64,000 nt of DNA from a virus (lineage: Duplodnaviria > Heunggongvirae > Uroviricota > Caudoviricetes). A program made the translations under genes and the position numbers. Location: the IMG/VR virus record IMGVR_UViG_3300018475_000095. The stretch is one strand, 5' to 3'. The notes below the pieces were generated by a model that saw nothing but the letters and a program-made list of their open reading frames with translations, was not told the origin of the DNA and made no database searches. Each line of letters starts with the position of its first letter. The stretch's first letter is position 1. Shown piece by piece: positions 17,600 to 48,895 of this stretch.

Positions 17600-17650
17600 C
17601 CTCCTATTTAATCATCCATATTATATATTATACAAAATAAAAAGTAAACT
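17600..17650 (-). promoter_or_regulatory. class A promoter (AGTTTACT-N17-TATAAT) for gene 17386..17595
   Basis: One of 8 conserved copies; see findings. Confidence 0.5.
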
Positions 17651-17666
17651 AAATTTCATTAAAAAA

Positions 17667-17688
17667 GAAGAATTATTTAAAATTCTTC
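17667..17688 (-). terminator. intrinsic terminator hairpin after gene 17677..18231
   Basis: GAAGAATT / AATTCTTC stem followed by a U-run on the minus strand. Confidence 0.45.
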
Positions 17689-18231
17689 TTCATCAAATAT
17701 TATTTCAAAATTTTCTTTTTTATATTTTTCTTTGTCAATTATATCATCTCTTTCATCTATATAATTACCAAAATTTAGATCTCTCATTATACATATTTTA
17801 CTTGAAAAAACAACTTTTGCAAGATGATCTAAAATATATTCTTGCGCATTTTTTTCTAATAATGGTGCCATATGACAATTTATAACATCACAAAAACTTA
17901 TTATAGATCTATCATTACAATAACCTTTTTTACTATTCCAAGGCAAATCATATCTAGGTTTTTCAAAAATGCAATTTGGAAAAGTTTTGATAATTAGATC
18001 ATATAGCTTCCAATATTTAGATACTACCGAGTAACTATATAAATATGATAATATATCATAAGGCTCATCTAGTATCATATCATAATCAAAATTTTCCAAT
18101 GGAATATTTACTTCATATTCTGAAGCTAATAATTCAAACTGGGTATCTGTTTTATCCGTTTTGCAAATTGCTAAGCTATGAATAGATGAACTATTTGTTT
18201 CGAATGTATTATTTCTAATTTTTTGATTCAT
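17677..18231 (-). CDS. FETNSSS-family paralog 1
   Basis: N-terminal MNQKIRNNTFETNSSSIHSLAI is shared with three other ORFs in the window. Confidence 0.6.
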   Translation of the reverse strand: MNQKIRNNTFETNSSSIHSLAICKTDKTDTQFELLASEYEVNIPLENFDYDMILDEPYDILSYLYSYSVVSKYWKLYDLIIKTFPNCIFEKPRYDLPWNSKKGYCNDRSIISFCDVINCHMAPLLEKNAQEYILDHLAKVVFSSKICIMRDLNFGNYIDERDDIIDKEKYKKENFEIIFDEEEF

Positions 18232-18276
18232 TTTATTAATTTCTCCTTGTTATTTTTAATAATATTAATTCCTTAG

Positions 18277-18402
18277 TTAATATTTTACTAAAATAATCGC
18301 AACTAAAAAAAATAATAATGTCGCTATAAGAATTAGTAACCCTTCTATCATAATTAATTCCTTTTTAAAAATTTTATATCTTTTTATAAACCTTTCAATC
18401 AT
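18277..18402 (-). CDS. small hydrophobic peptide (41 aa)
   Basis: ATGA overlap with the upstream stop; single TM helix; below track cutoff. Confidence 0.3.
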   Translation of the reverse strand: MIERFIKRYKIFKKELIMIEGLLILIATLLFFLVAIILVKY

Positions 18403-18611
18403 TTATCCAATATTTCTTCTACTTTATGATATGTATGGATAGAACCGAGTATCCAACCAGCTGAAAAAGCAGAATTGTACGAAGTATCTTCTAATTTTAA
18501 TTCTTCTGATTTTATCTCAGTTTTAATGCTTTCTAAAATAGTTTTATCATCTCTTTTTGAAAGTTGTTTATCAAACATTATCTTCATTAGCAATTCTTGG
18601 TCTTTATTCAT
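18399..18611 (-). CDS. hypothetical protein
   Basis: 70-aa ORF. Confidence 0.45.
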   Translation of the reverse strand: MNKDQELLMKIMFDKQLSKRDDKTILESIKTEIKSEELKLEDTSYNSAFSAGWILGSIHTYHKVEEILDK

Positions 18612-19272
18612 TCACAGAACCCTCTTTTGTGGTATCAATATTTACATATATAGGCGTATTATAAAGATCCCAATAATTAGCATAATCTTTCCAAGCTTTA
18701 TTCAAAATATCTTCTTTATGTTTCTCTTTTAATTTAGATTCTTTTATTATTTCTTTGAAATGAGTATAAGCAATAAAATAGTTATTTTTTGCAAAATCAT
18801 CAAAACCTAATTTGTAAGCAGACATTAATAACTTTAAATTTTTTAATGTTTCTTTTCGTGCATTAATTTCTGTGTCAGTTACATTAAATGGGTCTAAGAC
18901 TTCTAACTTACCTATTTTAAATCTATCATCTTTACCGCTAATAAATTTATAATTTAAAAATTTATCTTTAATAACAAAATCTATTTCTTTATTTATTTCT
19001 TGAGCTTCTTTTGCAAGTCTTTTAAATTCATCTAATTGAGAAGTGACTGCATAACTACAATCTTGGAAAGACCAATCATTATTGCTTTTCACATAAATTT
19101 GCCCATCTTTTATATCTAAAGTATTAGGTGGTGTTAAACCTTCTTTAATTCCTCTTGCAATACTTTCTTTTAAAGAATTATTTGATTCTAATTGTTTATC
19201 CATACTGATAATTATATCAATTAATTCTTCTCTTGTACATTCTGCTAATTTCTTCATTTCCAAATCTGTCAT
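18604..19272 (-). CDS. hypothetical protein
   Basis: 222-aa ORF. Confidence 0.55.
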   Translation of the reverse strand: MTDLEMKKLAECTREELIDIIISMDKQLESNNSLKESIARGIKEGLTPPNTLDIKDGQIYVKSNNDWSFQDCSYAVTSQLDEFKRLAKEAQEINKEIDFVIKDKFLNYKFISGKDDRFKIGKLEVLDPFNVTDTEINARKETLKNLKLLMSAYKLGFDDFAKNNYFIAYTHFKEIIKESKLKEKHKEDILNKAWKDYANYWDLYNTPIYVNIDTTKEGSVNE

Positions 19273-20252
19273 TATTTTATCTCCTTACTATGATTAAATT
19301 GGTCAGCTTCATTTAACAATTTTAAATTATTAAATTTTATATCCCCAAATACTTGTCTCCACTTCCTTTCAGATTTTTCAGTTTTAATATTATACATATG
19401 CATATGATAATTTATGTAAAATACTATATCTAATGTAGTATCATATTTAGGATAATCTTCTCCTAATTGTTCTATCATATACCAAGACATATAATTACAT
19501 AATACTTTATAAGCACCAACATTGGCATGATTATAGTAATGTGCATTAGGGTCATTTTCTTTATATGTCTGCGTATCAAGTTTGCCTATATCATGTAATA
19601 ATCCTGCTTCATATAAAACATTATCTATATCATATAATTGATTAGCAACCGATTCTAAATGTTCATGTAATAATTGAGTATGATGTTTATTATGTTGGTC
19701 AAATCCAAATGCAGATTTCATCATATTATTAAAATTTTCTACAGACTCATTATGCCCTATAATATTATACAGTAATATGTTGTCCCATCCTTCTTCATAA
19801 AAAGGTACTTCAAAAGATTCTAAATATCTTCTAACCACTTCTAATGGAACTTGATGAGAATTTATATCTTCATTTCTTTTTTTAACTCTTTCTATACATA
19901 CTTCATAAGGCGTGTTTACTATGTAACAAATCTTTTTACAAGGTTCTTTTATATTTAAAAATATTTGTTTTCTAGATTTAATTGTAATATTAGTTGCATC
20001 TAGGATAACATTTAATCCTTGTTTCAAAGCTATATTTGCTTGATTATATAAGCGTCTAAAAATAAATTCATTGTTCTCATCTGGAAATTCTTTTCTTAAT
20101 TTATCACTAGATAATACAATCATGTTATATTTCAAACTCAATTCTTCTGCAATAGTTGATTTACCGGAACCTTGCAAACCACACATCACAACCAGTTTAG
20201 GTAACCTATCTTCTGCTATGTCTAATCCTATTATTTTTATATCTTTATTCAT
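19272..20252 (-). CDS. polynucleotide kinase (P-loop) fused to an HD-domain phosphohydrolase
   Basis: Walker A GLQGSGKST at the N-terminus; HD motif HEHLESV...LLHDIGK in the C-terminal half. Confidence 0.75.
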   Translation of the reverse strand: MNKDIKIIGLDIAEDRLPKLVVMCGLQGSGKSTIAEELSLKYNMIVLSSDKLRKEFPDENNEFIFRRLYNQANIALKQGLNVILDATNITIKSRKQIFLNIKEPCKKICYIVNTPYEVCIERVKKRNEDINSHQVPLEVVRRYLESFEVPFYEEGWDNILLYNIIGHNESVENFNNMMKSAFGFDQHNKHHTQLLHEHLESVANQLYDIDNVLYEAGLLHDIGKLDTQTYKENDPNAHYYNHANVGAYKVLCNYMSWYMIEQLGEDYPKYDTTLDIVFYINYHMHMYNIKTEKSERKWRQVFGDIKFNNLKLLNEADQFNHSKEIK

Positions 20253-20733
20253 GCTGATTGCCTCTCTTTAAGAAAGTTTCATTTTGTATAGTATAATTAT
20301 CTAATTCGGCTTCAAATTTAGCTATTTTCAATAATACTCTATTTATTTTCCTCCTTGCTTTATGGAGTTTTGTTAAAGAGGTATCTAACATAACTCTTAA
20401 TTTTTCAATTTCTTTACCTCTCTCAGCAATTTCTTGGCTTGATTTTGTATATTCTCTTTCCAAATTTATATATAATTTATATAACTCGTCAGATAATGTA
20501 AACTTACTAAATGAAGATTTCAATACTAGTTTTGCTTCTAGGTCGGTTACCTTGTCTTGCAATTTTTCGTTCTCATCTCTAAAATCTTGAGCAAGTTTCA
20601 ACCACATATTATCCAAACTAATATGAGTTTTATGGTCTTTATATAATTCATTATAACAGTTGTTACATAAGCCCATTTCCCAATGGATATCTCCTGTTAA
20701 AATTTCATTTCCGCATTTAACACATTTACTCAC
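20245..20733 (-). CDS. zinc-finger / coiled-coil protein
   Basis: CVKCGNE...CNNC at the N-terminus, followed by a coiled coil. Confidence 0.5.
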   Translation of the reverse strand: MSKCVKCGNEILTGDIHWEMGLCNNCYNELYKDHKTHISLDNMWLKLAQDFRDENEKLQDKVTDLEAKLVLKSSFSKFTLSDELYKLYINLEREYTKSSQEIAERGKEIEKLRVMLDTSLTKLHKARRKINRVLLKIAKFEAELDNYTIQNETFLKRGNQHE

Positions 20734-21196
20734 TTTTCATCATCTCCTTTTTGAGTTGTTCTACTTGGTTGTCGATTATTTCTTCAATATCGTCTAAAAA
20801 TAAGTTACAATAATTCTTTCGCCAGCTATTTAATATCAACGATTTTAAATTTTTAATTCGCTCTACTGCGAATGAGATTTTATCTTGGTTGCTTTCTACA
20901 AATTTTGCAAACTTTTGATGTAGCCAATTAAACTCTTTTTCTTTCTCTGCAAGATGTTGTTTGAGTTCGTAATTCTCATTGGTTTGCTCAATAAATTGTT
21001 TTTCATAGATAGCAATTCTTCTTTTAATTTGCTCATCTTTAGTATTAGTAAATTGCACGCTTTTAAATTTTTTAAAAAATTTGGCGGTGTCTCTTGCAAG
21101 GTCGTCAACCCGTATCCCATCGCACAAAGGCCAGTTGGCTCTATCCCTATAACCTTGATAAAAATCCTCTAACTGTTTTTCGAATTCTTTATCCAT
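20726..21196 (-). CDS. hypothetical coiled-coil protein
   Basis: 156-aa ORF. Confidence 0.5.
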   Translation of the reverse strand: MDKEFEKQLEDFYQGYRDRANWPLCDGIRVDDLARDTAKFFKKFKSVQFTNTKDEQIKRRIAIYEKQFIEQTNENYELKQHLAEKEKEFNWLHQKFAKFVESNQDKISFAVERIKNLKSLILNSWRKNYCNLFLDDIEEIIDNQVEQLKKEMMKSE

Positions 21197-21240
21197 TTTT
21201 ATAATCTCCTTATTAATTATTTATATTATACAATAATTAC

Positions 21241-23172
21241 TTATAAAAGTAAATTAATTTCATGAGCTTTTATCTGAATTTTTCTTTTTAACTCTTTTAA
21301 TTTTGATTTAGATAATACTATACTTATATGACACCCAAAATCTTCAAATGGATCTTTTATCTCATTCATTGGATCAGTAAATTCTAAAATACTATTTCCA
21401 GTATAAGGTTTCCATGAATATAATGTACATGCACTAGATCTAGAATAAAAATGTTTTCTCAGTACCTGAGGTATTTCTTCATTTGTTATATTAAAAAATT
21501 TTTCTAAATCGCTATGGCTTCTTAATATTAATTCTATTTCACAGTACTTTCTATCATTGTCATTAGCAAACCAAATATAATTTCTCGTACCATATAAACT
21601 ATAGTAAATATTACCATAGTCAGTTTCAGTATAACCATCATATCTAGCAAAAGATTGTTTATGCTCATTTTCAAAAGTTTTTAAACTATAAGTATTTAAA
21701 TCGTCATTATCTCTAAATGCTTCCCAAAACATTTTTCTATTATCTTGATTATTGTTAGAATAACTATTCTTATAGTTATCTTTAAACCCATCTCTATCAG
21801 GTGTTTCTATCATTATTTTAACTATGGATTTAATATTTTTAGAAATATTATTTTGGTGCCAGTCTTCTAATTTTTTACGCCCTTCATAGTTATCTTGCTC
21901 TTTTAAACAAGCTTCTATATGATCCTTTTGTTGTTTTCTGATATTCCACCAGATATATTTTTCAGCTGTTTCCTTATCTCCAATAAAACTTTTTAATATA
22001 GGTAATTCTGTTTTTAATGGGTATTGATCAATTAAATAATCAAATAATGAATTTGAATATGATTTACCTTCATAGATATAAGTATCTGCTTTGATATTAT
22101 TCGGAAGAATAGGCAACTGTAGCTCATTAGAAGATACTAAAGCTTTAGAATCATTGAGTGGTAATAATTTTACTTCAGACGAGAAGTATTTCCTATTAAA
22201 GTTTTCTTCTATTGAATTGCAGAAATATTTGTTGTAAATTAAAGTCATTATTAAAGTAGAATATATAACACCTTCATCATCAAATAGATCAACTATATTA
22301 TAGCCACTTTCTTTTGCGTTATCATTAAAAGGTAATAATACTTGATTCACATGCTCATTTGATTGCTTTATCTTATCTAATTTATAATAAGGTAACCAAT
22401 CATAGTCTATCTTATCTCTCATAGCTCTGCCAGGGTTTCTAGACTTAAAAGCACCTTCAGGACTATCATAAGTTACCCTATCTGATACTACCCATACGAC
22501 ACCATTATTCTTAAAACCAAAAGCAAAGAAAGAATCTAAGTTATTATCATAGTATTCATCTTCAATCTTTTCGTTTGTTCTATCTATCAAAGCCATACAT
22601 ATAAAATTATCTTCACTTGCATTTTTCATTTTATCTACAAATAATTTTAAATGTTGAAATCTATATAATCTAGGGAGTATTGTTACATTTTTATTTATTT
22701 TAATTTCACCTTCACTAAATTTCTCATGCTTAAAAGAATATTTATTATTAAACTTTTCAATAGCTTTAGTTATGATATTTTCTATCTTTTTAATAGATTC
22801 AATATCTTCTTCTGTATAATTTTTACCTAACACTGAAGCATGTTTAATGATTAAATCTATGAATTTATGGTACACTTCTCCGGCTTTACCTGAATTCAAT
22901 AAATATTCAACATGAACAAATTTTTTCTTTTCTTCATACCAATTACCATCAAGTAATTCTTCAATAGTATAGTAATGTTCTTTAATAAAAGATTTGTAAG
23001 CTTCTCTCATAGTTAATACACTTAATAGTCCAGTATTATCTATATCTAAATAATTTTTTGCTTTATGGCAAAGAGCATCACTTTCAACACCAAACCTAAT
23101 AGAATTATCTGTAGGATCTTTTCCAGTAGCCTTTAAATATGCTTCAAATATTTCATTTAATTCATTTATCAT
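21241..23172 (-). CDS. large hypothetical protein
   Basis: 643-aa ORF with no recognised motif. Confidence 0.6.
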   Translation of the reverse strand: MINELNEIFEAYLKATGKDPTDNSIRFGVESDALCHKAKNYLDIDNTGLLSVLTMREAYKSFIKEHYYTIEELLDGNWYEEKKKFVHVEYLLNSGKAGEVYHKFIDLIIKHASVLGKNYTEEDIESIKKIENIITKAIEKFNNKYSFKHEKFSEGEIKINKNVTILPRLYRFQHLKLFVDKMKNASEDNFICMALIDRTNEKIEDEYYDNNLDSFFAFGFKNNGVVWVVSDRVTYDSPEGAFKSRNPGRAMRDKIDYDWLPYYKLDKIKQSNEHVNQVLLPFNDNAKESGYNIVDLFDDEGVIYSTLIMTLIYNKYFCNSIEENFNRKYFSSEVKLLPLNDSKALVSSNELQLPILPNNIKADTYIYEGKSYSNSLFDYLIDQYPLKTELPILKSFIGDKETAEKYIWWNIRKQQKDHIEACLKEQDNYEGRKKLEDWHQNNISKNIKSIVKIMIETPDRDGFKDNYKNSYSNNNQDNRKMFWEAFRDNDDLNTYSLKTFENEHKQSFARYDGYTETDYGNIYYSLYGTRNYIWFANDNDRKYCEIELILRSHSDLEKFFNITNEEIPQVLRKHFYSRSSACTLYSWKPYTGNSILEFTDPMNEIKDPFEDFGCHISIVLSKSKLKELKRKIQIKAHEINLLL

Positions 23173-23177
23173 ATTTA

Positions 23178-23555
23178 CTACTCCTTTAATTTAATGTCCA
23201 ATTTTTCTTTTAACTTTTTAAGTAGATTATCCATATTTGTTTCAGTAATCGAATACTCTTCTAATTCATCTTTATTCTCAATTACGATATCATTTATGAT
23301 ATTATCTATCTCTTCTGTGAATATTGCAGGTCGTTTTATTTCCTTTAAAGCAAATATTTTATAATTCAATTTTAAATCATTTAATTTATTAAATATCTCT
23401 TCATCTGAATAAGAGAATTTATAACCGGTAATTAATTCTTTATCATAAACACTAGATCCAAATTTATTCTCTAGAATGATACCATATATAGCATCTTTAA
23501 CTTCTGCTACTGTGTTGATCTCATTTCCTTTTACTTTCCAAATTTTATTTAACAT
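23178..23555 (-). CDS. hypothetical protein
   Basis: 125-aa ORF. Confidence 0.5.
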   Translation of the reverse strand: MLNKIWKVKGNEINTVAEVKDAIYGIILENKFGSSVYDKELITGYKFSYSDEEIFNKLNDLKLNYKIFALKEIKRPAIFTEEIDNIINDIVIENKDELEEYSITETNMDNLLKKLKEKLDIKLKE

Positions 23556-23556
23556 A

Positions 23557-23985
23557 TTAACTCCTTTTATCTATAAAATATAATTTATCATATTGTGAAT
23601 ATTTGCTATAATCTTCTTTAATAGCTATAAAATATTTACCAGTAGGTCTTTTTGCGGTTTTCTTATATGTACCCCATATACTTTCTTCTATTTCACCTGT
23701 CTCATACTCTTCATATTCAATATTTATTTGAGCCCTTTCAGAAGTAGGTTCAGCATCTTCATAATGAAACACACCGCCAACATCCTTAGAATGCCAAGTA
23801 CTATTATAAAATCTCCTTTGTCTTATTGGTTCAACATCACATACTTTAATTTGGTATTGTTGAGTTTTCTTAACATCAACAAAATACTCTGTTCTGTTAA
23901 TAACTTCAGCTTTCCAAACTTTACCATTTTTATCAATTCTAGTAAATACATCTCCGACTTTAATATCTGGTGCATATTCAAACAT
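23557..23985 (-). CDS. hypothetical protein
   Basis: 142-aa ORF. Confidence 0.5.
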   Translation of the reverse strand: MFEYAPDIKVGDVFTRIDKNGKVWKAEVINRTEYFVDVKKTQQYQIKVCDVEPIRQRRFYNSTWHSKDVGGVFHYEDAEPTSERAQINIEYEEYETGEIEESIWGTYKKTAKRPTGKYFIAIKEDYSKYSQYDKLYFIDKRS

Positions 23986-23999
23986 ATTATATCTCCTAC

Positions 24000-24034
24000 T
24001 TAATTATATTTATATTATATAATATTATAATAAA
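24000..24034 (-). promoter_or_regulatory. sigma70-like promoter of cassette class A (TTTACT-N17-TATAAT) for gene 23557..23985
   Basis: Minus strand reads AGTTTACT then 17 nt then TATAAT, then AGGAGAT and ATG. Confidence 0.5.
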
Positions 24035-24063
24035 AAAGTAAACTAATTTTCATAGTTTACTTT
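24035..24063 (-). terminator. intrinsic terminator hairpin (AAAGTAAACTA / TAGTTTACTTT) plus U-tract, overlapping the -35 of the next promoter
   Basis: 11-bp stem with a 7-nt loop, followed on the minus strand by TTTTTTATTAT. Confidence 0.55.
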
Positions 24064-24070
24064 AAAATTT

Positions 24071-25240
24071 TTAATCTTCTTTTTCTAATTTATAACCTAA
24101 TAAATTCATTTTCTTATCTTTAGATAATTCTTTCCATTCTTGCTTTATAAAATATTCTATTGGGTCTATATCTAAATATTTAAATAGAAACCCTGATAAG
24201 TCTTTATGTTCAGTTAAAATATAATTAGCTAGTTCTTTTCGTTTTTCTTTTTCATTTTCATAGAGGAAAGTATTACTTTTAAATAACATATCATCAATAG
24301 CATCATATATTTTATTTTGCATTTCTTTATATTTAGTTTCTATTTCATTAAATAAATCAGTATATTCTGGGAATAGTCCTAAAAATTCTGATTGCTCATT
24401 CTTTTCTATAATTGAAAGAATTTTTGCTCTTGAATTAACTCCATTATTTTTTAAATAATGTGCAGCTACGTATGCAGGTGATTTAATCTTAATTCTTTTC
24501 CAATATTTATCTACTACAACAAATCCTTCTTCATCATAGCCCATATATTCTACTCTATTCAAGCATTCTTTTAAATTTTGAAAAGGAAATTGTTTTGGAG
24601 TTTTAATAAATTTACTCAACTCAAGAGAATTTGGATCTAACTCTTCAAATGCGAATTTGCATCTTACGCCAATCAAGTATAAAGCATCTTTTCTATATGG
24701 AACAACTACTCTAGATTCTGGAGTTACTAATTCAAATGTATAGCAGTATAATCTATTCAAGCATTCAAACATAGAAGAATTGTTTGGAAAAGTATAATTT
24801 GAGAGAGCTCTGTCAAATAAATCTCTAAAAGATATTCCAAAGTCTCCAACAGGAGCATTACTTGCATCTAATTCACTTGAAGTAGACACCCTCCATTTAT
24901 GTAAGTAATCATCATACCACACAAGCATCTTAGATCCATCTACTTTTTCTAATACTTTTGCACTATCCCAGTCTATCTTATCAGCAAAACTTTCTTGGAC
25001 ATTAAAAAATTTATAGAAAGATAAAGCTGCTGGCTCTAAAATATTTTTGTCTATAATAAGACCTCTACATTCTCTGCATATATCTTCATTAAAATCTGAG
25101 TTTATTTGATTATATTTTAATAATACATAATTTTCATCTTCGTTTATGAATAAATTATAAGGAGCAGCTTGTAGCAACTCTCTCCAATTTTCATGACTCT
25201 TCATAAATTGAATAGTTTTAAGCATTTTCTTCCTCCTCAT
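24071..25240 (-). CDS. RNA ligase, Rnl1-like nucleotidyltransferase family
   Basis: EKVDGS is the KxDG adenylation motif in an Rnl1-like context; 389 aa. Confidence 0.65.
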   Translation of the reverse strand: MRRKKMLKTIQFMKSHENWRELLQAAPYNLFINEDENYVLLKYNQINSDFNEDICRECRGLIIDKNILEPAALSFYKFFNVQESFADKIDWDSAKVLEKVDGSKMLVWYDDYLHKWRVSTSSELDASNAPVGDFGISFRDLFDRALSNYTFPNNSSMFECLNRLYCYTFELVTPESRVVVPYRKDALYLIGVRCKFAFEELDPNSLELSKFIKTPKQFPFQNLKECLNRVEYMGYDEEGFVVVDKYWKRIKIKSPAYVAAHYLKNNGVNSRAKILSIIEKNEQSEFLGLFPEYTDLFNEIETKYKEMQNKIYDAIDDMLFKSNTFLYENEKEKRKELANYILTEHKDLSGFLFKYLDIDPIEYFIKQEWKELSKDKKMNLLGYKLEKED

Positions 25241-25308
25241 ATAATTCTACTTTTTCAAGAAAATAATTTTTCTTGAAAGAACCATTCTTCTCTACTTTAT
25301 CTAAATAT

Positions 25309-25966: not shown

Positions 25967-25970
25967 ATTA

Positions 25971-26278
25971 TTAAACCTCCTCGAGTTTACTTAAATCAAA
26001 TCTATATAAAGGGTAAGCACAGAACCCACTAAATCCATACTCACCTGTCGGATAAGCTATTTTATTCTCTTGTAAAAAATCCTCAACCCATGGGATATTG
26101 TTAGTATCTATATAAGCACATGCTTCATCACCTATACAATCACTAGCATCTATATTTACTGTTAATACTGCTATCATTTCCTTGTTATCTGATAAAAATA
26201 CCGCTAATGAACCATTATTAGCATAAGAATCTTTATGCAATGTATAATGTTTATTTTTATGTATGCTGCATCTAACAT
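25971..26278 (-). CDS. hypothetical protein; true start probably ATG 26278..26276 joined by a -1 shift in an A5 run
   Basis: AAAGGAG then 8 nt then ATG opens a frame that is -1 relative to track ORF 25971..26240, which starts on TTG with no RBS. The two frames overlap across ACATAAAAATAAAC. Confidence 0.45.
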
Positions 26279-26424
26279 AGTTTTTTCTCCTTTATTTATA
26301 TATACATTAATATTATATATCAATAAAAAGAAAAAGTAAACTAATTTTAACTAGTTTACTTTAAATTTTATTATTCATTACTTTCACAATCTTCTTGCAG
26401 TATATAATCTGGGTCAAATATTAT

Positions 26425-32299: not shown

Positions 32300-32454
32300 T
32301 ATACAATCTCCCTGTAATATAAAATATTATTTTCAAATGTGATATTTGCTAAACCTTTGTTTATCTTATCTTTATATAAAATATACAGAAAAGTAGAACA
32401 TATATTAAGTTCTAATTCATTATTTATATTATAAGATTCTTTTACTACTACCAT
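32299..32454 (-). CDS. small ORF (51 aa) translationally coupled to the PARP-like gene
   Basis: AAAGGAG plus 5 nt then ATG at 32454..32452; its TAA overlaps the PARP ATG (TAATG). Confidence 0.4.
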   Translation of the reverse strand: MVVVKESYNINNELELNICSTFLYILYKDKINKGLANITFENNILYYREIV

Positions 32455-32539
32455 AGCTACTCCTTTTAATTATAAATATTATATAAGATTATGATTAAAA
32501 AGTAAACTAATTTTAACAGAAAAATAAAAAAGTTGATAA

Positions 32540-33412
32540 TTAATTATCAACTTCTAAACTTATATATTTTAATATTGGTTTAAAATCATCTAGTGAATGA
32601 GTTTTAAGAATAAGTTTGATTGGTATATTTCTGCCATAAGTTAAATGCTTAAAACATTCTAATACTGATGCAAATGTTATCATAGCTGATTGATTTATAT
32701 CAACATCCTCTTCATCTTCTATTTCAATACATTTTATAAATTCATTATTATAATTATCTATCTCTTCCATAAATTCATTATAAACATCATCATTTACAAA
32801 TCTATTAATGTAATATAGACTAAATGTTTTAATATCATCAATCCAAAAATGCTTACCACTAGATATATAATCTATATTATCTAAATCAATAATACCTTTT
32901 TTAAATAATTTTTTAAACTCTTGGTATTCATCACCATCTACAATAACAGTGTACCTAGGGTCAAGGATAAATTCTCTCAAAGATATATTATTCTTTTCAA
33001 TATAATCAAATACATCTTCGCCTGTGTCATTTATACCAGCATATCCATAAGATTTTTCTGGTTTCTTTTTCCAAGGGTATTCTTCTTCACAATATAATTT
33101 TATTTTCTCCCTAGAACATCCTGTAAGCTCATAAACAAGATCTTCAACTTCTTTTAACCTTTCTTTTTCTTTTTTGAAACCTACATAATGTGCTACATAA
33201 TATCTTAGTTTATCTTTTGGACTAGATAAAACTTCAAAAGGTGTTCTTCCAAAAGAATGAGTATCACAACATCCAAATAGTTCAAAATCATTGCCATAAT
33301 AGTGCAATGATTTATCACTAACTGAGTAAGGTTTAACTTTCTTAGATATAACTAAACTATGCATTGAACTGCTATTTGTTTCAAAGGTTGAATTTCTAAT
33401 AAGTTGTTTCAT
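32540..33412 (-). CDS. FETNSSS-family paralog 3
   Basis: N-terminal MKQLIRNSTFETNSSSMHSLVI. Confidence 0.6.
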   Translation of the reverse strand: MKQLIRNSTFETNSSSMHSLVISKKVKPYSVSDKSLHYYGNDFELFGCCDTHSFGRTPFEVLSSPKDKLRYYVAHYVGFKKEKERLKEVEDLVYELTGCSREKIKLYCEEEYPWKKKPEKSYGYAGINDTGEDVFDYIEKNNISLREFILDPRYTVIVDGDEYQEFKKLFKKGIIDLDNIDYISSGKHFWIDDIKTFSLYYINRFVNDDVYNEFMEEIDNYNNEFIKCIEIEDEEDVDINQSAMITFASVLECFKHLTYGRNIPIKLILKTHSLDDFKPILKYISLEVDN

Positions 33413-37404: not shown

Positions 37405-37407
37405 ATA

Positions 37408-37602
37408 TTATTCTCCTTTATCTGGTGTTCTATCATCAAAATCAAGTTTGGTTAATAAATCAATCAATTTATTTAAATGTTCTTCATTTAATTTATCAAA
37501 GTTAAGAGTTTCTACTTTCTCACTAATGAAATTCCAAAACTCTACCTCTACCCCATATTCACCAAAACCTGTTTGGTATACTTTATAATTATCATGAAAC
37601 AT
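37408..37602 (-). CDS. hypothetical protein
   Basis: 64-aa ORF. Confidence 0.4.
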   Translation of the reverse strand: MFHDNYKVYQTGFGEYGVEVEFWNFISEKVETLNFDKLNEEHLNKLIDLLTKLDFDDRTPDKGE

Positions 37603-37673
37603 ATTTATTTTCCTCCTTTAATTATAAATATTATATATTATTGAAAAAGAAAAGTAAACTATTTTTCATTAGT

Positions 37674-37865
37674 TTACTCAAAATCTTTTATTTCATATTC
37701 ATCTTTAGATAATATTATTACATTAGGATCTAAACTCATCTCACCTTTTTGTAATTTATTTGCACATTCTTTACAACAAATTCTACCATCTGGAGTTGCA
37801 AATATCTGATGTTTACAATCTCCTCCACAGAAATAGCACTCTTGCCCATAAAACTTCTGCTCCAT
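37674..37865 (-). CDS. small zinc-ribbon protein
   Basis: CYFCGGDC...CCKEC. Confidence 0.45.
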   Translation of the reverse strand: MEQKFYGQECYFCGGDCKHQIFATPDGRICCKECANKLQKGEMSLDPNVIILSKDEYEIKDFE

Positions 37866-39498: not shown

Positions 39499-39500
39499 TA

Positions 39501-39929: not shown

Positions 39930-39990
39930 TATTATTATATAATAAAAAGAATGAAAAGTAAACTAAATTTCATTCTTTTTGTATAAATTA

Positions 39991-41158: not shown

Positions 41159-41172
41159 TTTCTCTTATCTCC

Positions 41173-42424: not shown

Positions 42425-42498
42425 GTTAACCTCCTATATTATAATTATATACTATCATTAACAAAAAGCAAACCGATTTTGAATATATTTATATAAAA

Positions 42499-42831
42499 TT
42501 ATTCATTTGAAACAATCTCAATATGTTTCTCATTGTTAAACCAGTTAGTATTATATTTGCTTATAATAGAGATCTTAAATACAGAAATTGATCTCACAAA
42601 ATCTTGTAAATCTTTTTTATTACCGCAATATAAAGGGTCATTACCTGTTATTATAACTTGACAGATATCATTATTATTTATTTGTGATATTAATGTATTT
42701 TTAATATCTAAATACTTAAAATTCTTATTATCTTTTGGCGGTGACTTTCTGCATTGCTTGCAATTATTACTACATCCTGCTACATATACATAAGCTATAT
42801 CTTGTTTAAATTCTACTTTTTCTATAAACAT
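42499..42831 (-). CDS. second small NrdG-like radical-SAM activase-like protein
   Basis: GCSNNCKQC cluster and ITGNDPLY. Confidence 0.5.
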   Translation of the reverse strand: MFIEKVEFKQDIAYVYVAGCSNNCKQCRKSPPKDNKNFKYLDIKNTLISQINNNDICQVIITGNDPLYCGNKKDLQDFVRSISVFKISIISKYNTNWFNNEKHIEIVSNE

Positions 42832-42907
42832 ATTAACACCTCTTTATATCATATATTATATAATAAAAAGATAGAGAAGTAAACTGATTTCTCTATCTTT
42901 TAATACA

Positions 42908-43360
42908 TTAATTTAATCTTATTATTCTTTGATTGCTGGAACCTCTAAATGGTAATGTAATATCTCTTTTATCTTGTTCAAATTTCCCATCCACTAAAAC
43001 GTCTATGTAATTTAATACACCAAAGTTTTTCATGTCTTCATACAAATAACCAGTATATAACCAAATAGTTTTACTAGGAAATTTTTCTTTTATCTCTTTT
43101 GTTAGAGCTACAATTTCATCTCTGTTTCCTGGATAAAATGGATCCCCACCACTAAATGTAATCCCATCTATGTAATCTCTATCTAATAATTCAAATAATT
43201 TTTGTTTGGTTTGTTCTGTAAATAGTTTACCTCGTGTCTCGTCCCAACATTCTGGATTGTGACAGCCTTTGCAGTAGTGTGAACAGCCTGTAACAAATAA
43301 AACAACTCTGACACCTTCACCATCTGCAATAGAGCAATCTAAAATTTGTTGATATCTCAT
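42908..43360 (-). CDS. nrdG: anaerobic ribonucleotide reductase activating protein
   Basis: GCSHYCKGC radical-SAM cluster and FSGGDPF. Confidence 0.85.
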   Translation of the reverse strand: MRYQQILDCSIADGEGVRVVLFVTGCSHYCKGCHNPECWDETRGKLFTEQTKQKLFELLDRDYIDGITFSGGDPFYPGNRDEIVALTKEIKEKFPSKTIWLYTGYLYEDMKNFGVLNYIDVLVDGKFEQDKRDITLPFRGSSNQRIIRLN

Positions 43361-43361
43361 A

Positions 43362-43619
43362 TTATCTCACCTTAATTTTTTTCTTATTTAATATTTGTGA
43401 ATTGCTATAAACTAAATAATTTGTTAAAGGTTCGCCTTGCCAGCCAGAAAAGCCTTGATATATAATTCCATCTTTTCCAAATATTTCAAATATAGCATCA
43501 TAAGCTTCATCAGTATATTTATTTTGTACATTAAACAATATTTCACTAATAATATCATTATCACTATTGTTATATGCAAATAAAGATTCTACACAATTAT
43601 TTAAAACATTTTCATAACC
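43362..43619 (-). pseudogene. start-less in-frame continuation downstream of the ART-like gene, possibly a decayed C-terminal domain
   Basis: Eighty-five-codon open frame in phase with the upstream gene across its TAA, with no ATG. It ends 2 nt before the nrdG ATG. Confidence 0.3.
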
Positions 43620-43934
43620 TTAATCTTCATACCAACCATAGTTAGATAAATAATCTTTTCCAATAGGATCTACATATTTTCTAATATAATTTTTAACTTG
43701 ATTTTTAGCTATAGTTATACTGTCATCTCAAAATGGTTTTCTAATTAATAAATCTGCTTCTATAACATAATCACCATAACTTTTAGCTTGATTAATTTCG
43801 TCTGTAAAGTAAAAGCCAAATCCATGCCCTAATGCATGAGCTCCAATGAATTGCTGCTCAAATCTGTCGAATTCTGCATTAGATCCATGATATGCGTGGT
43901 ATAAATTATTAATCTCTTCCTTTAAAAATTTCAT
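43620..43934 (-). CDS. small H-Y-E-class ADP-ribosyltransferase-like protein with in-frame TGA (43728-43730)
   Basis: AYHGSNAEF and GHGFGFYFTDE resemble the PARP HGS and GKGIYFAD motifs. After the TGA, 35 more sense codons run to a TAA (verified). Confidence 0.45.
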
Positions 43935-44016
43935 TACGTCTCCTAAATAAATATCTTATACTTATTCCACCTATACCGTTTCCTAAAACTATAATTAATA
44001 ATCTTAATAATACCTC

Positions 44017-44493
44017 TCAAGAATATATAAAAGTAAAATTAAAGTAAAACATGTCTGCAATACAGTGTTCTAATCCTATAACTACAAAGATAATAACTCC
44101 AAAGAAAAGAGATAAAATACCTCTTATATCTTTGAACTTATTGTATCCTTCTACCGCTATATAAATTAATATGTTACATAAAATTCCGAGTATAAATAAA
44201 CTTATATAGGAATCACTTAATTTGATTTCACATATTGCATTTGCATACTCTATTAGATTAATTAACCGTGTAGCTCTACACATTAAAGCTAGTAATAATG
44301 TTCCTATAAAATTACCAAGTAAAGTTATAACTACTTCTAAATAATTTTTCTTTTCTATAACATAACAAATCTTACCTGTGAATAAATTTAATTTAAAAGT
44401 AAGTATAACAAATAATCCTACAGTAAATAAGAAAGCACCCACTATTTTATCAGGAGATGATAGATAGGCTAAACAGCCTATCCCTATAAACAT
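44017..44493 (-). CDS. polytopic membrane protein
   Basis: Four or five TM helices. Confidence 0.5.
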   Translation of the reverse strand: MFIGIGCLAYLSSPDKIVGAFLFTVGLFVILTFKLNLFTGKICYVIEKKNYLEVVITLLGNFIGTLLLALMCRATRLINLIEYANAICEIKLSDSYISLFILGILCNILIYIAVEGYNKFKDIRGILSLFFGVIIFVVIGLEHCIADMFYFNFTFIYS

Positions 44494-44530
44494 TCCTGCT
44501 AAGATTGATTTAATAAATCAATTTAATATT

Positions 44531-47500
44531 TTATTCAATAGGAACTCCTGTGTGTTTGACTCTATCTTCTACTTCCGCTATCTTACCTTCATTAAAATTA
44601 TGATAATCTGTAGAAACATATCCTGTAACTCTTCTTAATCTTTCAATATTATCTGAACCACATTCTGGACATTTATCATTCATTTCTTCTTGATGTCCGC
44701 AGTCCATACAAACATCATTTGGTACGTTTATAGCAAAGTAAGGTATATCTTTATCCATAGCATAATTAACTAATTTTTCAATAGCTTCTATATTATGAAT
44801 TGAAGATGAATCTAATTCTACATAAGTAATACACCCAGCTGAAGAATAACCTGTTAATTGACTTTCAATATCTATTTTATCAAAAGCATTTATGTTATGG
44901 TATACTGGAACATGCATTGAATTAGTAAAATATTTTCTATCAGATATATTTGGAATAATACCATATTTTTCTTTAAATTTAGTCATAGCAGTTTTACATA
45001 AAGATTCTGCAGGAGTATAATAAACACCAAAATTTAATTTATATTGTTCTTTAAAATAAGCACATTTATCTTTAAATAATTGTTCTATCTTTTTAGCAAG
45101 TTCCATACCTTCTTTTGTAGTATGGTCTTTTCCAATTAATATTTGTAAACATTCAGCAAGACCTAATTGACCTATAACTAATGTTCCATGTTTTAAAGCA
45201 CTCCTAATTCCTTCTTCTGGAATATAACCAGCCATTGTGTTATTTTCATACATAAATGGGGCTGATTTAGGTGATTGGCTACAGATATGCTCAAATCTTT
45301 CTATCAAAGAGTCTTTTGCTTCATTTATTTTACATTCAAGTAATCTCATAAATACATCTATATCTGATTCTTCTGAAGCTCTTGTACATTCTTTAGATTT
45401 CATTGCTATTGTTGGTAATATAATAGTAGTAGGTGCAATATTTCCTCTACCATCTTTTTGTTGTTTTAAACCATTAATATCCCAACCATTTGCAGTTCTA
45501 CAGTTATGCATTATAATATCTGAACCTATAAATGAACCAGTTTCAGTACCTATATCGTAGCTATCAACTGCTTCCCAATGCCAACATATATCAGTTATTT
45601 CTAACTCTAAATTATCAGCTCTATAAAGTTTATCACCTATTTTTAATTGATCTGCTCTTGTAAATTTATCTCCTGTCCATAGAGGGTGATCTTCAGTACA
45701 AGACAAACAATATTCTTTATCGTATTCTTTGTAATAGATATGCATCATATACGGAGTATTTAATTTATCATTTTTAAAGATATGTTTGATCTTTACCCAT
45801 TTATTATCTCTATCTAATACTTTAATATCAAATTCAGATAAATCAATCAATTCTTGTTTTTTACTCAAATCAACTTTAAATACAGGTCTATCATATACTC
45901 TATGCCTAGATTTTTGAGTAATTAACTTATAATATTTCTTATCTGTTCCTCTAGGATTTATATTTGCATTCTTTTGAATATAAAGGTTTTCAGCTTCTTT
46001 ATAATCTTCAGTTATTTCTAATACTTTAAATTCATAATTAGCTGTATCAATATCCCCAAAATTTATTCCTGCATCAATCCCACCTGTTTTGCCTATAGCA
46101 CATTTATGCTCAGCGCATCTTCTAGAAATAGAACTTGAACTTCCAATATATGTGACATCTTCTGGTAAATAAGTTATTGAATAAACACCTGGTAGATTAG
46201 GTAATCCAGATTTTTCTTGATAATGTCTACCTAAAGGCTCTTCATTTAATTTTTCTCTGTTATACCAAATCTGTGTTTTCTTATAATTTTGTAAATCATC
46301 TGTTTTACAATAATCAAATAAGTCTCTGATAGATAAGTCAATAGGTTCTTCATTTCCTATTTTAACTGTTAGATGTTCATGACCACTCAAAGCACCCATT
46401 GTACTAAAATATGTTTTTGGATCATTTACATCGTAACCTGCATTACCACTCCAATCAACTGAGGCATAATTTGGATACAATCTCTTTGAAGTTGATTTTA
46501 ATGCTAACTTAAATAAGTCATAATTTGGATCGCCCGGTTTTCTGTTAACACCTTTCATGCACTGGAATATACCACAAGGGAATATACTTGTTCTATGATA
46601 TTTTCCTAAACCTTCAATAGATACATTTAACAATTCTTCTGTTATCATTCTACCTTCTGGTAAAGTGCAAGTTCCATAATTTATAGAGCTAAATGGTAGT
46701 TGTTGTCCACTTCTTGATTGTAATGAATTTAAATTGTGATATAATGCTTCAACTGCTTGATGTGTTTCTTTTTCAGTTTGTCTCATAGCATATTCATAAG
46801 CATCTTGATTTAGTTTATATTTTTCGTCAATTATAGAAGTTTCTTTTGTAATTCCTTCTAAATACTTTTCATTACCGAACCAATATAATCCTTCTTTATA
46901 ATGTTTATAAAAACTCTTTCTTACATAAGGGACCATTGACCAATCAAAGTGAGTATATGATACACCACCAAATTGACATAAACTTTGTAATTGCATTATA
47001 ACAGCTGACAATTGCATCGCTGTATTTACTGTTCCAGCAGGTCTTATATCTGTCTGTTTAACTTTAAATCCTTTTGCTAATAAATCATCTAAAGGAATTG
47101 ATAAACAATTATGCATACCACTTGCATAAGCATCTAAATCATGTATATAAATTTCATTATTAATATGATTATTTCTAGTAGTTTCTGATACTAAATTATT
47201 AAGTGCATATTCTTTTAATATAGTTCCAAATGCTTCTTTCTCTCTTCCACTGAAAGTATTTTCATCTAGGTTTGCATTTGAATTTTCTACATTCTTTGCT
47301 TCTAGTTTAGCTTTAACTTTATTCATTAGTTCAGTATAACTATTTCTAGCTAGTTTATGTAATTGTCTATATTCTATGTATGCTTTTGCTTGTTCATATT
47401 TATTAGCTTCCATCAAAGTTAGTTCTACAATATCTTGAATTTGTTCTACAGTATAATTTTTTCTTTTATCTAATTGTTGTGTTACTTTATTTGTTAATTC

Positions 47501-47626
47501 TGTTATCACACCATCATTAACATACTCACCTTTAGGACAACAATCTTCAAAACAACCTAATATTGCTTTCCATATTTTATACTCATCAAATTTTTGCTTT
47601 GATCCATCTCGTTTTATAATTTGCAT
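44531..47626 (-). CDS. nrdD: anaerobic ribonucleoside-triphosphate reductase, interrupted by an intein-like insertion
   Basis: Class III RNR; C-terminal CMDCGHQ...CPECGS zinc ribbon plus glycyl-radical RVTGYVS. At 1031 aa it is far longer than typical NrdD. Confidence 0.9.
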   Translation of the reverse strand: MQIIKRDGSKQKFDEYKIWKAILGCFEDCCPKGEYVNDGVITELTNKVTQQLDKRKNYTVEQIQDIVELTLMEANKYEQAKAYIEYRQLHKLARNSYTELMNKVKAKLEAKNVENSNANLDENTFSGREKEAFGTILKEYALNNLVSETTRNNHINNEIYIHDLDAYASGMHNCLSIPLDDLLAKGFKVKQTDIRPAGTVNTAMQLSAVIMQLQSLCQFGGVSYTHFDWSMVPYVRKSFYKHYKEGLYWFGNEKYLEGITKETSIIDEKYKLNQDAYEYAMRQTEKETHQAVEALYHNLNSLQSRSGQQLPFSSINYGTCTLPEGRMITEELLNVSIEGLGKYHRTSIFPCGIFQCMKGVNRKPGDPNYDLFKLALKSTSKRLYPNYASVDWSGNAGYDVNDPKTYFSTMGALSGHEHLTVKIGNEEPIDLSIRDLFDYCKTDDLQNYKKTQIWYNREKLNEEPLGRHYQEKSGLPNLPGVYSITYLPEDVTYIGSSSSISRRCAEHKCAIGKTGGIDAGINFGDIDTANYEFKVLEITEDYKEAENLYIQKNANINPRGTDKKYYKLITQKSRHRVYDRPVFKVDLSKKQELIDLSEFDIKVLDRDNKWVKIKHIFKNDKLNTPYMMHIYYKEYDKEYCLSCTEDHPLWTGDKFTRADQLKIGDKLYRADNLELEITDICWHWEAVDSYDIGTETGSFIGSDIIMHNCRTANGWDINGLKQQKDGRGNIAPTTIILPTIAMKSKECTRASEESDIDVFMRLLECKINEAKDSLIERFEHICSQSPKSAPFMYENNTMAGYIPEEGIRSALKHGTLVIGQLGLAECLQILIGKDHTTKEGMELAKKIEQLFKDKCAYFKEQYKLNFGVYYTPAESLCKTAMTKFKEKYGIIPNISDRKYFTNSMHVPVYHNINAFDKIDIESQLTGYSSAGCITYVELDSSSIHNIEAIEKLVNYAMDKDIPYFAINVPNDVCMDCGHQEEMNDKCPECGSDNIERLRRVTGYVSTDYHNFNEGKIAEVEDRVKHTGVPIE
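45506..46396 (-). mobile_element. intein-like (Hint) element within nrdD carrying a GIY-YIG endonuclease domain
   Basis: Block-A-like ALSGHEHLTVKIG...IRDL, GIY-YIG core GVYSITYL...YIGSS...R...EH, block-B-like TEDHPLWT, and block F/G SYDIGTETGSFIGSDIIMHN followed by Cys. Confidence 0.55.
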
Positions 47627-47720
47627 TGATATCCTCCTTATGATTTATACAGTGAATAAAATAGTTCTTATAAACGTTTTAAATGTTCATAAGAACTACT
47701 ATATCTCCTTTTCTTTGAAT

Positions 47721-48212
47721 TTATATCTTATAATTCTCGTATAATATACCAGAACTATAATATCTTTTTATCTTTTTTATAATATCTTCTGGTAAAATAT
47801 CTTTTGTATTAAAATACTTACCAGCTTTTCTATCTCCTCTAATACCTATTCATATAATAGGATATTTAGTCAGCCAATTTTCTAACGTATCTAGTTGAGA
47901 ATAAGTAGGTAATTTCGTAGGTAATTCTATGTAAGGATCTGAATCTGTTAATACTCCATCATTTACTCTTATGCAATTAAAATCGTCTATAAGAATAAGT
48001 TTGTCTAGTTCGAATGGTGAAGTCTCTATTAAATTATTATCATAAAGAAAATCATCTACTCACATGTGAGATCCTTCCTCTATATTTAAATATTCACCAT
48101 CCTTCAGTATATAAGCAGCCCCACCAAAATAACCAAAGCTTATTTGATTATCAAATAAATTTAAAATTTCTTGATATAAAGCTATGTTTGAATTTTCTCT
48201 TAAAAATCTCAT
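47721..48212 (-). pseudogene. degenerate or frameshifted gene with an additional in-frame TGA at 47850-47852
   Basis: ATG 48212 gives 53 codons then TGA. Downstream coding potential moves between frames, and the final 105-codon open frame contains one TGA. Confidence 0.35.
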
Positions 48213-48415
48213 TATTTTCCTCTATACAATAGGCCAGAAGCTTGATCCCCTCTAGCAATTATCCTACCATAAAAATCCCTTGTAACATTAGATGCTTTAT
48301 CATATCTACCAAGTATCCTACGATAAAAATCTCTTATGACTTTATTTCCTTTATCATCAGTTTGAATATAACCTATAATTTTACCATAAAAATCTCTTAT
48401 TATTTCTTCTTGCAT
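48212..48415 (-). CDS. small tandem-repeat protein
   Basis: Three roughly 20-aa repeats: IRDFYGKIIGY, IRDFYRRILGRY and TRDFYGRIIARG. Confidence 0.5.
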   Translation of the reverse strand: MQEEIIRDFYGKIIGYIQTDDKGNKVIRDFYRRILGRYDKASNVTRDFYGRIIARGDQASGLLYRGK

Positions 48416-48789
48416 TAGTTTTCTTTCTCCATATAATTTATAATATTATACAGTTTTTGAAATTTCTCTTCTTCCGAATATTCTTCTTGTTTATCAAATG
48501 CTTGAGTTATAGCATACCTTGGCATATTCAAAAAACTCTGAATTCTCTTTATTATCTTTGATTCGGAGAACTCTGTTTGAAAGAATGATATATCACAAAC
48601 TTTGCAAGGTATATTCCCATCATCTATATAAGGGCCAGCTTCAAGTATTTTAGAAAAGCCTAATTCTGTTCTTATCCATAAATATACTTTAACACCTTTA
48701 TCACTGAACGCCTCTATAAAACAATTACCCAAATTTTCTATATTTAGTGTATCTGAATATGTTTGTACATAATAATATTTAAATTCCAT
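48415..48789 (-). CDS. hypothetical protein
   Basis: 124-aa ORF. Confidence 0.5.
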   Translation of the reverse strand: MEFKYYYVQTYSDTLNIENLGNCFIEAFSDKGVKVYLWIRTELGFSKILEAGPYIDDGNIPCKVCDISFFQTEFSESKIIKRIQSFLNMPRYAITQAFDKQEEYSEEEKFQKLYNIINYMEKEN

Positions 48790-48895
48790 CTTAAATTATC
48801 CTTAATAGTTTACTATTAATGTAAACTTAGTAGTATATTTATTTTATTAATCCTTTTAGAATAAAAAGAATATAGTAAACTCCTATGTAAACTTT

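Follow-up and report, generated by a model that had tools for sequence, protein, structure and literature searches.

What are the near-identical elements that recur between genes on one strand of a large gut phage genome, and what keeps them alike? We analyzed 64,000 nt of the IMG/VR virus record IMGVR_UViG_3300018475_000095 (Caudoviricetes; this whole stretch is hereafter the window), for which an original prediction had described at least eight copies of a terminator-promoter cassette with a plus-strand GTAAACT core. The window has 27% GC, a GC skew that is strongly negative over its entire length, and nearly all of its genes on the minus strand. The cassettes resolved as seven near-identical intergenic modules of 45–75 bp. 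Sequence and comparison with relatives make it very probable that they are composite modules, each combining an intrinsic terminator with an early promoter for host sigma-A.

Cassette copies are named by the window position of the G in GTTTAC. The motif AGTTTACT-N15-TATATAAT, equivalent to TTTACT-N17-TATAAT and comprising 16 specified bases, matched the window seven times (17649, 24043, 26341, 32507, 37659, 39963, and 42884), always on the minus strand, with no exact match on the plus strand and 0 matches in 100 dinucleotide shuffles. AAAGTAAACT was found nine times vs 0.47 expected and GTAAACT 34 times vs 10.8 expected, an excess that persisted once the cassettes were subtracted. When one mismatch was allowed in GTTTAC-N18-TATAAT, two more intergenic matches appeared, the variants GGTTTGCT (42473) and AATTTACT (21254). 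The seven core copies align over ~40 nt with the consensus aAAattAGTTTACTTtT-N11-TATATAATAt, and copies 26341 and 32507 share a 21-nt identity, GTTAAAATTAGTTTACTTTTT. The spacer is exactly 17 nt in all seven core copies and in both variants. Every core copy lies between a stop codon and the next Shine-Dalgarno sequence (SD) and ATG, with 23–33 nt from the -10 to the SD-led ATG. TATAAT matches the -10 consensus at 6/6 positions, and TTTACT, identical in the seven copies, matches TTGACA at four of six (T1, T2, A4, and C5). A generic sigma-70 consensus scan of the window returned 154 matches vs 150 expected; because such a scan is at chance level in 27% GC DNA, only the specific extended motif carries weight. 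Scanning IMG/VR for AGTTTACT-N15-TATATAAT gave ~119 single chance matches and no multi-copy relative, and was uninformative. The cassettes, their hairpins, and the two degenerate copies are located as follows.

17620..17691, minus strand: cassette 1, with -35 TTTACT at 17643-17648, -10 TATAAT at 17620-17625, SD AGGAGG, and ATG at 17595.
17661-17691, minus strand: cassette 1 hairpin and T-tract, GAAGAAGAATTttaaatAATTCTTCTTTTTT, folding free energy (dG) -12.4, z -3.0; putative terminator upstream of the -35.
24014..24063, minus strand: cassette 2, directly downstream of the RNA ligase gene, with -10 at 24014-24019 and ATG at 23985.
24032-24063, minus strand: cassette 2 hairpin, AAAGTAAACTAtgaaaatTAGTTTACTTTTTT; the -35 (24037-24042) is the 3' arm.
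26312..26362, minus strand: cassette 3, with -10 at 26312-26317 and ATG at 26278.
26331-26362, minus strand: cassette 3 hairpin, AAAGTAAACTAgttaaaatTAGTTTACTTTTT; the -35 (26335-26340) is the 3' arm.
32478..32552, minus strand: cassette 4, with -35 at 32501-32506, -10 at 32478-32483, and ATG at 32454.
32526-32552, minus strand: cassette 4 upstream hairpin and T-tract, AGTTGATAATtaatTATCAACTTTTTT, dG -13.1, z -3.05.
37630..37679, minus strand: cassette 5, with -10 at 37630-37635 and ATG at 37602.
37644-37679, minus strand: cassette 5 hairpin, GAGTAAACTAatgaaaaaTAGTTTACTTTTCTTTTT; the -35 (37653-37658) is the 3' arm, and the 5' arm includes the TAA stop of the upstream gene.
39934..39978, minus strand: cassette 6, with -10 at 39934-39939 and SD AGGAGG before the ATG at ~39899.
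39944-39978, minus strand: cassette 6 hairpin, AAAGAATGAAAtttagtttacTTTTCATTCTTTTT; the -35 (39957-39962) is in the loop.
42855..42900, minus strand: cassette 7, with -10 at 42855-42860 and the ATG at 42831 of an NrdG-like Fer4_12 protein.
42865-42900, minus strand: cassette 7 hairpin, AAAGATAGAGAAatcagtttacTTCTCTATCTTTTT, dG -12.4; the -35 (42878-42883) is in the loop.
42444..42474, minus strand: degenerate promoter-only copy, GGTTTGCT-N15-TATATAAT; no terminator hairpin, z +0.6.
21225..21255, minus strand: degenerate promoter-only copy, AATTTACT-N15-TGTATAAT, with an extended -10; no hairpin.

The count of at least eight thus stood for seven copies. The proposed copy at 48875/48887 consists of three GTTTAC words and one GTAAAC, with no TATAAT at N17 and no terminator, and is not a cassette. 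Most of the listed positions held, with small corrections: the plus-strand GTAAACT core lies at 32502 rather than 32511 and at 26336 rather than 26335, and the hairpin partner placed at 26345 is in fact the arm at 26352-26362. The degenerate copies at 42444-42474 and 21225-21255 were absent from the earlier list. Neither closely follows an intergenic stop codon, and copy 21254 overlaps the end of the upstream gene.

When the region was folded as sense RNA, each of the seven core copies yielded a hairpin (-8 to -13 kcal/mol) with five or more T/U immediately after the stem. The hairpins lie 14–32 nt after the stop codon (83 nt for copy 26341), and their stems span 8–13 bp and their loops 4–11 nt. 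Three layouts were found. In copies 24043, 26341, and 37659, the 3' arm of the stem, TAGTTTACTTT, is the -35, and the 5' arm is AAAGTAAACTA. Copies 39963 and 42884 have unrelated arms, GAATGAAA/TTTCATTC and GATAGAGAA/TTCTCTATC, that enclose the -35 in the loop, and in both of these layouts the terminator T-tract is the promoter spacer. Copies 17649 and 32507 have a separate hairpin and T-tract ending ~20 nt upstream of the -35. The predicted order of hairpin, U-tract, and then -35 therefore describes only these last two copies; in the other five the -35 is inside the hairpin and the T-tract in the spacer. As a sequence-based prediction, the central proposal of terminator-plus-promoter cassettes with sigma-70/sigma-A geometry (TTTACT-N17-TATAAT, SD, ATG) before early-type genes was supported. 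An Rfam search matched no family to the cassettes and found only tRNAs.

The cassettes were compared with the corresponding sites in relatives. Stretches of relatives carry L numbers (L120, L122, and so on), and the close-clade loci were taken around RNA-ligase homologues and are syntenic with the window. Syntenic relatives at 55–83% RNA-ligase identity keep a promoter at the same places, and in the closest, L122 and L120, the cassettes at orthologous sites are almost the same as in the window. The -35 itself varies. TTTACT is replaced by TTTGCT at the site matching window copy 17649 in L122 and L120, and in L120 also at the 32507 site. The -35 is AG-TTGATT in L124, L237, L238, and L123, TTTACA or TTGACA in L125, L126, and L236, and TTGACA in L207 (41% GC). 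All of these relatives retain the 17-nt spacer and have a -10 resembling TATAAT, often together with the same AAATTAG flank. The window also contains a canonical GTTGACA-N17-TATAAT at 63847-63876 on the minus strand, a short distance before a tRNA in the tRNA block, which is higher in GC, and the phage therefore appears to use a textbook -35 as well. Because the relatives and this tRNA promoter carry TTGACA-type -35 elements, TTTACT is best read as one lineage's version of the ordinary housekeeping -35.

The upstream arm changed together with the -35. MAFFT alignments of orthologous cassettes mis-registered the 5' arms, and stem pairs were anchored on the -35/-10 register instead. At site A, after the conserved ...SNE* gene end (cassette 26341), the stem is AAAGTAAACTA/TAGTTTACTTT in the window, L122, and L120, AAGAATCA/TGATTCTT in L123, and AAAAATCAACTA/TAGTTGATTTTT in L238. 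At site B, after the RNA ligase gene (cassette 24043), the L237 stem is ...GAATCAACTA/TAGTTGATTTATTTT. Across these two sites the 5' arm and -35 shift in step as GTAAAC/GTTTAC, GAATCA/TGATTC, and ATCAAC/GTTGAT. Compensatory double changes occur at hexamer positions 3 (A-T to C-G) and 5 (G-C to A-T), and positions 0 and +7 are likewise doubly changed, so that three to four stem positions covary overall. Several G.U wobbles pair only in the sense-strand RNA, the opposite strand having A.C mismatches. The covariation therefore points to selection for a sense-strand RNA stem plus a -35, and not for the word GTAAAC. Where the stem is a different one, as in two copies, GTTTAC is conserved in its role as the -35.

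The embedding of a -35 in a hairpin is frequent among relatives, at 12/35 promoters in the close clade vs 0.67 expected from shuffled controls, and at 79/182 promoters across 109 more distant loci vs 23.5 expected from the same type of control. Examples are AAAAGTCAACTCtcaaaaGGGAGTTGACTTTTT in L134 and CCCCTTGACAAnnnnGGGG in L129-L133. Among these IMG/VR phages, L129, L130, L132, and L133 (e.g., L129 at ~9929) have repeated promoters with a TTGACA -35 in the loop of the G+C-rich hairpin CCCCTTGACAAnnnnGGGG. L134 and L135 (e.g., L134 at ~7732) have TTGACT as the 3' arm of the hairpin AGTCAACTC...GAGTTGACTTTTT. Because such distant phages carry it too, the terminator-in-promoter layout appears widespread in the broader phage group.

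We propose the following mechanism. The RNA hairpin and U-tract would serve as an intrinsic terminator for the early transcription unit upstream, and a strong housekeeping-sigma promoter, overlapping the terminator or directly after it, would start the next unit. The putative promoter comprises an A/T-rich upstream tract (AAAATT), the -35 AG-TTTACT, a 17-nt T-rich spacer, and the extended -10 TATATAATAT. Space would be saved by building the -35 hexamer into the terminator, as the 3' arm in three copies and in the loop in two, and the T-tract would therefore double as the promoter spacer. GTTTAC would be the lineage's -35 (TTGACA with G-to-T at position 3), with the upstream GTAAAC merely its stem complement. 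The outcome would be a chain of early transcription units of ~2–6 kb each, in which a possibly leaky terminator is followed by promoter restart. Promoter activity, with initiation at the cassettes by the host sigma-A holoenzyme, is predicted, and so are transcripts ending at the T-tracts. The cassettes head operons with the genes for RNA ligase, DNA ligase, the PNK-like kinase, the CCA-adding enzyme, and the PARP-like protein. We infer early expression from three features: the kinds of genes present, the use of a host-type promoter, and where in-frame TGA codons occur.

Several observations weigh against this composite terminator-promoter reading. The hairpin z-scores are individually modest (-1.8 to -3.0). 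The stems are AT-rich with 1–4 G-C pairs, in place of the G+C-rich stem that defines an intrinsic terminator, and a terminator consensus scan that required at least three G-C pairs reported none of the cassette hairpins. Few G-C pairs in terminator stems are common in 27% GC genomes. Because the stems hold few G-C pairs, termination may be partial and act as attenuation. AGTTTACT is identical at 8/8 positions in the seven copies, tighter than sigma recognition alone demands, which leaves room for an additional factor or for homogenization by recombination. Finally, the host is probably a member of the gut Clostridia, as judged solely from the metagenome-assembled genome (MAG) bins that hold relatives.

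Known systems resemble the cassettes in part. Generic sigma-A/sigma-70 promoters and Rho-independent terminators share the -35/17/-10 geometry and the hairpin and U-tract after a stop codon, but in the cassettes these signals are interleaved, with the -35 in the stem or loop and the U-tract as spacer, and the G-C pairs are unusually few. In phage T4, the early promoter consensus has GTTTAC at -36 to -31, a -10 TATAAT, and upstream A-tracts. The cassettes share the -35 word, the -10, and an A/T-rich upstream region where T4 has an A-tract. The early promoters of RB49, RB43, and Aeh1 have GTTGAC where T4 has GTTTAC (PMC1524935), and a similar T/G alternation at the third hexamer position separates the window (GTTTAC) from L124, L123, L238, and L207 (GTTGAT/GTTGAC). 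Because lineage and host are unrelated, we read the T4 resemblance as convergent use of a near-consensus housekeeping -35. The closest likeness is to the promoter-early stem-loops (PeSLs) of T4-type phages, which are composite terminator/promoter motifs (Arbiol et al. 2010, PMC2839356; Comeau et al. 2014, PMC4122927). In a PeSL, a strong sigma-70-like promoter is preceded by an AT-rich tract and overlapped, at varying positions, by a stem-loop, and an SD and ATG follow (PMC2839356, PMC4122927). Both systems consist of small repeated intergenic terminator/promoter composites among accessory early genes, with an AT-rich tract before the -35, a stem-loop overlapping the promoter at varying positions, and an SD and start codon. 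However, the stem of a PeSL is in many cases polyG/polyC and as a rule covers the -10 or falls in the interval from -35 to -10, whereas the cassette stems are AT-rich and overlap the -35. The window phage is also not T4-type (Straboviridae) by its best matches, and its probable host is Gram-positive Clostridia. Because of this difference in lineage and probable host, membership in the PeSL family by descent is unsupported, and the resemblance is, by analogy, functional and convergent.

Four other explanations were weighed against a terminator joined to a host promoter. One holds that GTAAAC/GTTTAC is the operator of a phage or host regulator and that the cassettes are conserved for protein binding, in line with the original prediction, which had proposed selection on GTAAAC itself and a possible regulator-binding site. 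AGTTTACT is identical in 7/7 copies, the GTAAACT excess remains after cassette subtraction, and extra word clusters without a proper -10 occur at 14831-15079 and 48807-48893, and these points speak for an operator. Yet TTTGCT in close relatives and TTGATT, TTTACA, or TTGACA in distant ones stand at the orthologous promoters, the upstream GTAAAC arm covaries with the -35 as stems do and operators do not, the stem partner is unrelated to GTAAAC in two copies, and the fixed 17 nt to TATAAT is the signature of a -35. Conservation of GTAAAC for its own sake was accordingly rejected, the word being replaced in orthologues and its upstream copy covarying as a stem partner, and we regard an operator as very improbable. 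A phage-redirected polymerase, through a phage sigma factor or MotA/AsiA-style appropriation, would instead make the cassettes middle promoters. Phages such as T4 are able to re-target the -35 region, the -35 departs uniformly from TTGACA, and a PARP-like ADP-ribosyltransferase is encoded in the region; T4 Alt-modified polymerase, in turn, is said to prefer T at -33 of GTTTAC (PMC1524935). Redirection is nonetheless unnecessary with a wholly canonical spacing and -10, relatives that share the gene set, PARP-like gene included, have TTGATT or TTGACA as the -35, and no sigma-like protein was found among the ~37 window proteins scanned (about one third of the window's proteins), which leaves this explanation improbable. 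The specific case of a MotA-dependent middle promoter was rejected. The MotA box is (a/t)(a/t)(a/t)TGCTTtA, centered at -30 and 11–13 nt from the -10 (PMC1524935), whereas the cassettes lack any TGCTT box and instead conserve AGTTTACT, 17 nt away from the -10.

The cassettes could also be primarily recombination modules of the kind suggested for PeSLs (PMC2839356; PMC4122927), repeats that reshuffle neighboring genes and resemble one another through gene conversion or mobility instead of selection for promoter strength, a role that would be compatible with the terminator-promoter function as an addition. Besides the PeSL precedent, the 21-nt identity between copies 26341 and 32507 favors it, as do a block at 21250-20246 that starts with a variant promoter and is present in the window and absent from L122, and the different genes that L120 carries between RNA ligase and kinase. 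But among the insertions and deletions that distinguish the window, L122, and L120, none is flanked by two cassettes, the conserved core of ~30 nt is short for homologous recombination, and orthologous cassettes hold position across relatives with proteins just 55–60% identical. We consider such a role unlikely, if the least so of the four. Extruded hairpins or cruciforms read in DNA by a specialized polymerase, as in phage N4, are scarcely credible. The -35 lies within an inverted repeat in five copies, but the stem shifts relative to it (arm, loop, or 20 nt upstream), stem and loop lengths vary, the G.U wobbles would correspond to G.T mismatches in DNA and, on the opposite strand, to A.C mismatches, and each stem is followed by a T-tract, a hallmark of RNA terminators, with a full -10 at 17 nt. 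N4 virion RNA polymerase promoters have a fixed 5–7 bp stem and a 3-nt loop read in DNA, with no -35/-10. N4 and MotA promoters likewise have a hairpin or a non-canonical -35 region, but neither fits the cassettes.

The block mentioned above spans ~1 kb (20246-21250, minus strand) and consists of the promoter at 21254 and two small genes (156 and 162 aa) that are missing in L122 (13782-13802). In L120, the stretch from RNA ligase to kinase holds a different and shorter set of genes. From its sequence, the variation at 20246-21250 looks moron-like, promoter-led, and modular.

A terminator within the next promoter may go beyond compaction and act as a functional coupling device, which we put forward as a long shot. 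A polymerase releasing its RNA at the T-tract would already sit on the next spacer and could re-initiate without leaving the DNA. Such "recycling termination", or facilitated reinitiation, has been described for bacterial RNA polymerase, which remains bound to the DNA and starts again from the closest promoter (PMC11347151). Alternatively, transcription across the -35 could transiently occlude the promoter. If coupling is real, it would give a chain of insulated yet polymerase-sharing early operons, and it would be a general design rule of these large phages, because the layout exceeds chance in >100 related large gut/rumen Clostridia phages.

The source of the window is a large uncultivated phage. 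A megablast of 20 kb of the window found no match among GenBank phages, an IMG/VR single-protein scan with the RNA ligase returned no relatives, and a look-up of the exact RNA ligase protein gave no record. The best protein matches, for the DNA and RNA ligases, are to Geobacillus/Bacillus phages and uncultured phages at 33–41% identity. Metagenomic contigs of 140–160 kb encode proteins that reach 83% identity to the RNA ligase, and MAG bins of gut and rumen Clostridia include more distant relatives. Predicted genes at 15–48 kb are of early, nucleotide-metabolism, and RNA-repair type by sequence: NrdD with a GIY-YIG insertion, the NrdG-like Fe-S protein, an ATP-dependent DNA ligase, an Rnl1-type RNA ligase, a PNK-like kinase with an HD domain, a CCA-adding enzyme, an RlaP-type nucleotidyltransferase, a PARP-like protein with a WGR domain, and an SPFH protein. 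In NrdD (44531-47626, minus strand, 1031 aa), the GIY-YIG nuclease domain (residues 480–555) splits the reductase match in two, as expected of an in-frame endonuclease insertion within a core enzyme. The first gene after cassette 26341 (25971-26278, minus strand) is a frameshift-split DUF4313 homologue, in which the SD-led ATG at 26278 leads to a stop after 24 codons and the remainder lies in another frame; the L122 version has 102 aa (8685-8993). The split reflects either a genuine pseudogene or a mistake in sequencing or assembly. Sixteen tRNA genes are clustered at 57.3–63.6 kb of the window. A 501-aa protein at 57746-59251 (minus strand) matches phrog_850 ("RNA-binding protein", E 2e-132), and its gene adjoins two long non-coding stretches, 57193-57745 and 56317-56545, one of which holds a tRNA-like UCA element.

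TGA is probably decoded as an amino acid in this phage, most likely Trp as judged from sequence. Under the standard code, 86 genes end in 9 TGA, 63 TAA, and 14 TAG stops, and most of the TGA "stops" continue into in-frame coding sequence. In-frame TGA codons occur at 53118, 49060, 48062, 47852, 44019, 43730, 9869, 9070, and 7823. Read-through gives the full domain of the SSB (49483..48896), with a Pfam match at residues 97–184 that spans the TGA at residue 142, and restores that of a GIY-YIG/NUMOD3 endonuclease (53355..52600), where the TGA falls within "EIYwIKFY". It also joins pairs of open reading frames, e.g., 11342..9618 and 8249..7380. A tRNA with anticodon UCA, labeled "tRNA-SeC" by ARAGORN, lies at 57330-57426 on the minus strand. 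Stop-codon recoding is known in gut phages (bioRxiv 10.1101/2021.08.26.457843), and the pattern in the window fits. All credible in-frame TGA codons are outside the cassette block at 17.6–42.9 kb, and the TGA-containing genes, which would depend on decoding by the phage itself, are recoded and probably later-expressed. Recoding matters for any gene calling on the window.

Other motifs recur in the window. GCTAAATTTA(T) was found six times, against 1.1 expected; each site is on the coding strand, and most are 20–40 nt upstream of an SD. Minus-strand sites of GCTAAATTTA are at 2465-2474, 8530-8539, 11993-12002, 14768-14777, and 50757-50766, before genes outside the cassette block, and sites in relatives are at ~17440 in L123, ~15540 in L236, ~11680 in L237, and ~15500 and ~18450 in L238. 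The motif is kept even where the early -35 of relatives differs and is likely a late or middle promoter class of the clade. TTACTGTATA(AT), an extended -10-like TGTATAAT preceded by TTAC, was found five times vs 0.4 expected, including minus-strand sites at 2418-2427, 54967-54976, 59362-59371, and 60691-60700, mostly just upstream of an SD. GTAAAC/GTTTAC words outside the cassettes cluster at 14831-14851, 15023-15079, and 48807-48893, and include two small GTAAAC...GTTTAC hairpins. Four direct GTAAAC repeats straddle the stop of a 56-aa gene at 15044. Repeats around this stop read on the plus strand as TTTACA-N16-TATACT and TTTACA-N16-TATGAT, and these elements could act as antisense promoters where the early block ends. 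L120 has GTAAACTCCAGTGTAAAC conserved and L122 has it with one change, but more distant relatives lack it.

Taken as composite terminators and host-type promoters, the cassettes provide a usable promoter/terminator model for an uncultivated clade of ~140–150 kb gut Clostridia phages. They define putative early transcription units at 17.6–42.9 kb and set them apart from regions with in-frame TGA codons. A PeSL-like layout with a terminator fused to an early promoter, described only in T4-type phages of Gram-negative hosts, would thus recur in an unrelated AT-rich lineage. The cassettes also offer a natural example of double constraint, with a -35 hexamer and a terminator stem in one sequence and compensatory evolution between the arms. 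They are a compact, essentially ordinary organization of early phage genes, and current understanding is not overturned. Their value would lie mainly in annotation, in synthetic-biology parts for low-GC Firmicutes, and in test material for the coupling of termination to reinitiation.

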